Sequence record: MK370061.1
Source of the DNA: a phage
Reading direction: 5' to 3' (one strand)
DNA: 774 bases
Shown here: positions 1-774 of the stretch, piece by piece
Position numbering within the stretch: position 1 is the stretch's first letter
Layout: each line of letters opens with the position of its first letter
The notes under the pieces: generated by a model
Told to the model about the DNA's origin: nothing
Database searches by the model: none
Seen by the model: only the letters and a program-made list of their open reading frames with translations
Translations under genes and position numbers: made by a program

Positions 1-774
1 ATGACTATTTCTACTGATACTACTCTTCTTCATGATCCTCGTCGTCAGGCTTCTCTTCTTTATTGGCAGGGTTTTTCTGTTCCTCAGATTGCTGAGATGC
101 TTCAGGTTAAACGTCCTACTGTTCAGTCTTGGAAACAGCGTGATGGTTGGGATGGTATTGCTCCTATTTCTCGTGTTGAGTCTTCTCTTGAGGCTCGTCT
201 TATTCAGCTTATTGCTAAACCTCAGAAATCTGGTGGTGATTTTAAAGAGATTGATCTTCTTGGTCGTCAGATTGAGCGTCTTGCTCGTGTTAATCGTTAT
301 TCTCAGACTGGTAATGAGGCTGATCTTAATCCTAATGTTGCTAATCGTAATAAAGGTGAGCGTAAAAAACCTAAAAAAAATTTTTTTTCTGATGAGGCTA
401 TTGAGAAACTTGAGGAGCTTTTTTTTGATCAGTCTTTTGAGTATCAGCTTCAGTGGTATCGTGCTGGTCTTGCTCATCGTATTCGTGATATTCTTAAATC
501 TCGTCAGATTGGTGCTACTTTTTATTTTTCTCGTGAGGCTCTTCTTCGTGCTCTTAAAACTGGTCATAATCAGATTTTTCTTTCTGCTTCTAAAACTCAG
601 GCTTATGTTTTTCGTGAGTATATTATTCAGTTTGCTCGTCTTGTTGATGTTGATCTTACTGGTGATCCTATTGTTATTGGTAATAATGGTGCTAAACTTA
701 TTTTTCTTGGTACTAATTCTAATACTGCTCAGTCTCATAATGGTGATCTTTATGTTGATGAGATTTTTTGGATT
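1..774 (+). CDS. Phage terminase large (ATPase) subunit, P2 GpP-like family; N-terminal 258 codons, 5'-complete (ATG at nt 1), 3'-truncated by the window end
   Basis: Seen in sequence: frame +1 is open from ATG at nt 1 to nt 774 with no stop; the other two + frames hit stops within the first 15 nt (tga at 2-4, tga at 15-17). Manual translation begins MTISTDTTLLHDPRRQASLLYWQGFSVPQIAEMLQVKRPTVQSWKQRDGWD and continues to ...GAKLIFLGTNSNTAQSHNGDLYVDEIFWI. From established knowledge: an N-terminal HTH segment followed by a KSRQxGxT-type deviant Walker A and an hhhDE Walker B about 80 residues later is the layout of terminase large-subunit ATPase domains. The family assignment is from recall, not a database search. 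No nuclease domain is present because the window ends first. Confidence 0.85.
   Translation, partial: MTISTDTTLLHDPRRQASLLYWQGFSVPQIAEMLQVKRPTVQSWKQRDGWDGIAPISRVESSLEARLIQLIAKPQKSGGDFKEIDLLGRQIERLARVNRYSQTGNEADLNPNVANRNKGERKKPKKNFFSDEAIEKLEELFFDQSFEYQLQWYRAGLAHRIRDILKSRQIGATFYFSREALLRALKTGHNQIFLSASKTQAYVFREYIIQFARLVDVDLTGDPIVIGNNGAKLIFLGTNSNTAQSHNGDLYVDEIFWI
52..153 (+). other. Encoded N-terminal helix-turn-helix-like DNA-binding segment of the terminase (aa 18-51, SLLYWQGFSVPQIAEMLQVKRPTVQSWKQRDGWD)
   Basis: Seen in translation: a short helix (SVPQIAEML), a turn with basic residues (QVKRP), then a second helix (TVQSWKQR), bracketed by aromatic residues. This is typical of small HTH modules at the N-terminus of GpP-like terminase ATPase subunits. 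Boundaries are approximate. Confidence 0.5.
373..388. repeat. Perfect 16-nt self-complementary homopolymer palindrome A8T8 (aaaaaaaatttttttt) inside the CDS
   Basis: Seen in sequence at nt 373-388, produced by codons aaa aaa aat ttt ttt t(ct) encoding K-K-N-F-F-S. A second T8 run lies at nt 419-426 (ctt ttt ttt, encoding L-F-F). Both follow directly from the one-codon-per-residue coding. They would be unusual and mutationally unstable in a native gene. Confidence 0.9.
496..519 (+). other. Encoded deviant Walker A / P-loop of the terminase ATPase (aa 166-173, KSRQIGAT)
   Basis: Seen in translation: KSRQIGAT. It resembles the SRQLGKT Walker A of T4 gp17, but the canonical GK[ST] lysine is alanine, and a lysine sits at the N-terminal end of the motif, as in the lambda gpA-type deviant Walker A. 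A YQ pair (aa 148-149, nt 442-447) lies 17 residues upstream, where terminases carry an adenine-binding Q-motif. Confidence 0.6.
745..762 (+). other. Encoded Walker B-like motif of the terminase ATPase (aa 249-254, DLYVDE)
   Basis: Seen in translation: hydrophobic LYV followed by the acidic pair DE, about 80 residues after the Walker A. Spacing and form fit a terminase Walker B (hhhDE). The downstream coupling motif would lie beyond the window. Confidence 0.5.

Follow-up and report, generated by a model that had tools for sequence, protein, structure and literature searches.

The window, by which we mean the whole 774-base stretch of DNA analysed here, is read from end to end by frame +1 (positions 1-774), which begins with an ATG and runs through 258 codons without a stop. 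Its translation was used as a tblastn query against 50,697 phage records and was found to be 100% identical to residues 1-258 of Orf12 of coliphage 186 (records U32222 and NC_001317, annotated "terminase large subunit; Orf12; P2 P homolog"); the identity to other phages in the same search was at most 99.6%. Direct translation of the native 186 gene over the matching stretch gave the same protein as the window. Native Orf12 (NP_052251.1) is 589 amino acids long and is encoded on the minus strand of NC_001317 (3730..1961). In the native 186 and P2 loci alike, the portal gene lies downstream, and the scaffold, capsid and small-terminase genes are divergent near cos. NC_001317 also carries, directly after orf12 and slightly overlapping the start of the portal gene (196-1218), a CDS labelled gene W (1215-1961; "terminase large subunit; similar to Orf12"), which appears to be an oddity of annotation or an outdated reading-frame assignment.

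The window protein was matched by PHROG 5751, "terminase large subunit" (E=2.6e-152), and by two Pfam domains (Table 1). The N-terminal helix-turn-helix domain expected of a gpP-type terminase was present over the full length of its profile, and it was followed by the first half of the ATPase domain. Within the latter lie KSRQIGAT, which we take to be the deviant Walker A of terminases, and YVDE, presumably the Walker B of the large terminase. In full-length native Orf12 the Terminase_6N ATPase domain extends from residue 164 to residue 386 and is followed by Terminase_6C at 413-571. The window ends four codons past YVDE, at residue 258 of 589 and inside Terminase_6N, and the C-terminal RNase-H-like nuclease domain (PF17289, the Terminase_6C of the native protein) is absent from it. 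Because that domain is absent, the window protein would, judging from its domain content, be a fragment of a known large terminase of the P2/186 gpP type rather than a functional member of that group. A sequence search of the Protein Data Bank with full-length native 186 Orf12 returned no chain at E<=0.01; as far as that search goes, the widespread P2/186 type of terminase has no solved relative detectable from sequence alone. A literature search on the phage 186 orf12 terminase returned nothing relevant.

Table 1. Features located in the 774-base window
Feature	Position	Strand	Basis or content
Synthetic back-translated fragment, 186 orf12 codons 1-258	1..774	+	Codon tabulation, protein identity, exact rebuild
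Stop-free antisense frame (-1)	1..774	-	0 stops; native gene has 2 stops in this frame
gpP-like N-terminal helix-turn-helix domain, aa 12-69	34..207	+	Pfam PF06056 Terminase_5, E=3.1e-27, profile 1-58/58
Terminator-like hairpin	177-197	+	8 pairs, T-rich tail; sequence absent from native gene
A8T8 homopolymer pair	373..388	+	Recoded K-K-N-F-F; window AAAAAAAATTTTTTTT, native gene AAAAAGAATTTTTTCA
T8 run	419-426	+	Recoded LFF
ATPase domain, first half, aa 164-258	490..774	+	Pfam PF03237 Terminase_6N, E=7.7e-27, profile 2-108/215
Walker-A-like segment KSRQIGAT, aa 166-173	496..519	+	Motif position
Walker-B-like segment YVDE, aa 251-254	751..762	+	Motif position

An earlier note on this DNA had claimed that every amino acid in frame +1 is written with one codon across all 258 codons. 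Tabulation of the frame gave exactly the 19 distinct codons that the note expected, with zero synonymous variation, and the tabulated codons agreed with all 19 of the assignments it listed: Ala GCT (19 copies), Asp GAT (15), Glu GAG (15), Phe TTT (14), Gly GGT (16), His CAT (4), Ile ATT (20), Lys AAA (15), Leu CTT (26), Met ATG (2), Asn AAT (13), Pro CCT (8), Gln CAG (18), Arg CGT (20), Ser TCT (17), Thr ACT (12), Val GTT (11), Trp TGG (5) and Tyr TAT (8). Cysteine and stop codons were absent. Third positions were T in 203 of 258 codons (78.7%), G in 40, A in 15 and C in none, as the note had it when it described about four fifths of the codons as ending in T and none in C. Wright's effective number of codons (Nc) was 20.0, which is the theoretical minimum, whereas in the native 186 gene the corresponding 258 positions are written with 52 codons (Nc 39.5). 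Among the coding sequences examined, from phiX174, M13, G4, alpha3, lambda, T7 and 186, the fewest distinct codons found in any natural stretch of 258 codons was 40. The probability of a single codon for each amino acid was approximately 1e-54 given the codon frequencies of the native 186 gene, and approximately 1e-121 given uniform synonymous choice; the pattern cannot be due to chance. The window thus has the form of a one amino acid-one codon sequence, keeping to a single codon per amino acid through a stretch long enough for natural genes to vary.

In order to compare the recoded DNA with its natural counterpart, the window and the native 186 gene were aligned without gaps. Nucleotide identity was 75.1% (193 base differences) and was distributed unevenly over the codon, being 95.7% at the first position, 97.3% at the second and 32.2% at the third. 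Identical codons were found at 82 of the 258 positions; the remaining 176 were changed, all of them synonymously, with no amino acid differences. By arithmetic from the codon counts, there were 11 differences at position 1 (4+7) and seven at position 2, numbers that fit the recoding of native TTR leucine codons to CTT and of native AGY serine codons to TCT. As a natural control, 186 and P2 were compared over the same codons; their DNA was 83.7% identical, and of the codons that differed 88 were synonymous and 20 changed the amino acid; at that ratio the probability of zero amino acid changes among 176 changed codons is approximately 1e-16. Identity to a natural protein, together with DNA differences that are synonymous only, is what back-translation would leave, and the earlier claim that the window is back-translated is therefore upheld by these 193 changed bases in 176 codons. 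The accompanying expectation, that the translation would prove to be that of a phage large terminase subunit encoded natively with mixed codon usage, was also correct (52 codons, with a third-position GC content, or GC3, of 0.70 in the native gene). The identity reported by BLAST for positions 1-773 of the window against NC_001317 was 75.5%, close to the 75.1% of the ungapped codon comparison. Full recoding of any gene would be expected to leave an identity no lower than about 75%, since the protein dictates the first and second positions of each codon.

Searches for the recoded DNA itself were negative in all of the collections used. By megablast the window had no match in the phage collection, which includes phiX174, nor in the plasmid collection. 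Native terminase genes were detected by sensitive blastn, with matches to 1,629 of the 5,426 E. coli genomes and to 142 of the 50,697 phage records, but the best identity among these E. coli genomes and phages was 75.5%. Of two different 30-mers taken from the window, neither occurred in viral_contigs or genome_contigs, and one was missing from metagenome_contigs as well; these scans were exact-match, such that a copy mismatched in both probes would escape them. The DNA was therefore found in none of the natural collections searched (phage, plasmid, E. coli, viral, genome and metagenome), as would be expected of an artificial sequence. The prediction that no meaningful native nucleotide match would be found stood for megablast. 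It did not hold for sensitive blastn: with 96-97% of first and second codon positions preserved, the native homologues are still recovered, at about 75% identity. Neither of the two observations that would have spoken against the earlier note, an amino acid with two codons or a near-identical nucleotide match in the collections searched, was made.

The composition of the window differed from that of the native gene in ways that trace to the codon choice. GC content was 37% in the window and 55% in the native 186 gene, with a GC3 of 0.155 in the window, and the AT skew shifted from +0.08 in the native gene to -0.32. Recoding of KKPKKNFF, LFF and FW produced runs of A6, A8 followed directly by T8, T8 and T6 (364-388, 419-426 and 764-769); the native gene contains a single T6 run. 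The A8T8 pair is a recoding artefact and carries no signal. Repeated 9-mers occupied 22 positions in the window versus 4 in the native gene. The absence of stops in frame -1 follows from the codon set, in which no codon is the reverse complement of a stop. Frame +2 contains a single stop, its first codon, versus four in the native gene; it is nearly free of stops since 202 of its 257 codons carry a T in the middle position. We considered both frames as overlapping genes and rejected them, since their openness follows mechanically from the set of 19 codons. An Rfam scan of the window returned no family at the gathering score, and no promoter-like site was found in the window. The terminator-like hairpin was rejected as a signal because it was at chance level, one having been found versus 0.5 +/- 0.9 in shuffled sequences. 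The GC content, the excess of T, the homopolymers, the short repeats and the openness of the alternative frames are by-products of the codon table. The warning in the earlier note that nucleotide-level signals here say nothing of the original genome was thus well founded with respect to composition, repeats and alternative frames.

To identify the source of the codon table, most-frequent-codon tables were computed from the annotated genes of a handful of candidate genomes and compared with the window at the 17 degenerate amino acids. The top-ranked codons of phiX174 agreed at 17 of 17, as did those of alpha3, so that every choice made in the window is the first-ranked codon of a single reference table. 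Agreement was lower for M13 (15 of 17), G4 (11), T7 (9), lambda (8) and the 186 late genes (4). M13 was rejected because it disagrees at Leu (TTA) and Glu (GAA), and G4 because it disagrees at six amino acids, for which it prefers ATC, GAC, CAA, TTC, GAA and AAC. T7, lambda and 186, with eight, nine and thirteen mismatched amino acids respectively, were likewise rejected. Alphabetical rules and rules that take the first or last codon, judged by eye, fail at Leu, where CTT is neither, and at Lys versus Gln and Glu. When the 186 protein was back-translated with the phiX174 top-codon table, the window was rebuilt with 0 mismatches in 774 bases, and this result was the same with or without the overlapping A* gene. 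Codon preference is not uniform across the Bullavirinae, alpha3 (NC_001330) fitting at all 17 amino acids and the related G4 (NC_001420) being off at six.

The perfect fit to phiX174 and alpha3 is worth no more than about 4 bits (one chance in 16). In 13 of the 17 choices the codon used is the sole T-ending codon of its amino acid, and only Ser TCT (not AGT), CAG, GAG and AAA discriminate between tables; with only four discriminating choices, the link to a small coliphage is weaker than 17 of 17 suggests. In phiX174 the counts behind three of these are CAG 53 versus CAA 45, GAG 58 versus GAA 35, and AAA 74 versus AAG 47. A phiX174-type most-frequent-codon table is the best reading of the source, though not necessarily the only one; alpha3 fits equally, and the comparison covers neither Cys nor stop, both absent from the window. 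For Cys, phiX174 itself has a tie between TGT and TGC, at 13 copies each. The suggestion in the earlier note of a table from a small, T-preferring coliphage accordingly stands as to the agreement at all 17 amino acids and the exact rebuild, but it rests on four informative codons. The same note's statement that the table is not one optimised for E. coli is borne out by the lambda, T7 and 186 tables, which are similar to E. coli in their usage, have CTG for Leu and do not match the window.

These results indicate that the window is almost certainly artificial, namely residues 1-258 of 186 Orf12, or of an identical prophage allele, written with one codon per amino acid. Such a sequence would be obtained by taking the amino acid sequence of residues 1-258 of the 186 terminase large subunit (Orf12, the homologue of P2 gpP) and looking up, for each residue in turn, the one codon that a fixed table assigns to it, a "one amino acid-one codon" back-translation. 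The table would be that of the top codons of a phiX174-like microvirus, with phiX174 and alpha3 fitting equally well. Its ends carry neither a leader or ribosome-binding site at the 5' end, nor a stop at the 3' end, nor cloning ends. The window is exactly 774 bases long, and its 3' cut looks arbitrary. The window lacks both a translation-initiation region and a stop codon, and it breaks off partway through the ATPase domain; it is thus a truncated fragment and not an expressible gene. We infer that it was produced by a person or a program. It was probably made in silico and not designed for synthesis, as suggested by its 8-base homopolymers, which gene designers normally avoid, along with the missing stop, ribosome-binding site and cloning ends and the cut within a domain. 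Beyond the encoded protein, nothing in the DNA of the window reflects evolution.

A natural origin would require a genome of extreme codon bias, for example that of a host with a minimal tRNA set or of a single-stranded DNA phage rich in T, that had acquired a terminase of the 186 type. The codon preferences of real phiX174 and alpha3 genes do point in the same direction as those of the window, but phiX174 genes use 21-60 codons with an Nc of 32-56 and have T at no more than 57% of third positions, and an identity of 75% with zero amino acid changes stands against the 20 changes seen between 186 and P2 at 84%. The recoded DNA was, moreover, in none of the collections searched, and the organisms listed for the 490 phage records with a tblastn match to the protein included no microvirus. 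The organisms listed were tailed phages (186, P2 and relatives), which, with the lack of a megablast match, does not support a gene of a phiX174-like microvirus. We regard a natural gene as so improbable that it may be neglected, and the absence of any amino acid divergence from phage 186 rules out, for all practical purposes, a natural organism or virus that truly uses a single codon for each amino acid. It is appreciably more probable, and a possibility that we take seriously, that an artificial window owes its codons to a hand-made or rule-based table with a preference for T, unconnected to phiX174 or to any other real genome. The 13 sole T-ending codons would follow from such a preference by themselves, leaving a choice to be made only for Ser, Gln, Glu and Lys, and a rule of the form "T-ending where available, else CAG, GAG, AAA; Ser TCT" yields identical DNA. 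However, no simple third-base rule yields CAG, GAG and AAA together: under "else G" Lys would be AAG, and under "else A" Gln and Glu would be CAA and GAA. The combination does agree with the empirical rank order in phiX174 and alpha3, and other T-rich genomes fail at these choices (M13 at Glu and Leu, G4 at Gln and Glu). A hand-made table, if real, would leave the verdict of artificial origin unchanged.

Whether the window exists as a file or as a molecule is a separate matter, on which the sequence alone cannot tell one from the other. A physical synthetic gene, fragment or read, recoded for an experiment on codon usage, attenuation or expression of the 186/P2 terminase, seems to us unlikely, although one amino acid-one codon design has been used in gene synthesis (PMC3056764). 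The table in the window is unlike that of the expression host E. coli, for which lambda, T7 and 186 served as proxies. E. coli uses CTG for Leu. The A8T8 and T8 runs are of the kind avoided by synthesis-aware design, a construct would hardly lack a stop, a ribosome-binding site and cloning ends and be cut in mid-domain, and no plasmid record matched. Still less likely, and in our judgment very improbable, is that the window derives from a recoding project that was actually built, such as a packaging gene in a 20-codon "minimal code" or a codon-deoptimised terminase, whose DNA was present in a sequenced sample; were this true, the window would be the trace of an engineered phage instead of a computer file. 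A back-translation made in silico therefore remains our preferred reading.

For users of sequence collections the window amounts to a data-quality flag, and it should be marked as synthetic or recoded and excluded from nucleotide-level inference. The GC content, skew, k-mers, repeats, promoter and terminator scans, alternative-frame ORFs and codon-based host prediction obtained from such a sequence describe the lookup table and not a genome. It can also serve as a positive control, because the artefact is recognisable from the letters alone and the protein is still traceable to its exact source. If many sequences of the same source share a 20-codon table, this would imply that the whole batch was recoded.

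Nothing in the window is new, since its protein is that of a known coliphage terminase, the recoding method is known, and the genomic feature is an artefact. It can nevertheless be placed against three known systems. With 186 Orf12 it shares amino acids 1-258 without a difference, and the Terminase_5 domain and the start of Terminase_6N are common to both, but it stops short of residues 259-589, where the remainder of the ATPase domain and the RNase-H-like nuclease domain are located. The native 186 locus has in addition a stop codon, a B-dependent p12 promoter and neighbouring portal and scaffold genes, which are not found in the window. With the Bullavirinae phiX174 and alpha3 the window shares the preferred codon at all 17 degenerate amino acids and a T-rich coding strand; it differs from them in that their real genes are far less restricted in codon number and third-position T, as given above, in that there was no homology by megablast, and in that its protein comes from tailed phages, the Peduoviridae. 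The third system is one amino acid-one codon optimisation, in which each amino acid is given the most abundant codon of a reference table (PMC3056764). Here the table fits phiX174 and alpha3 and not an expression host, and the constraints of synthesis and expression are not respected (homopolymers, no stop, truncated end), but the pattern of the window is exactly that of the published design.
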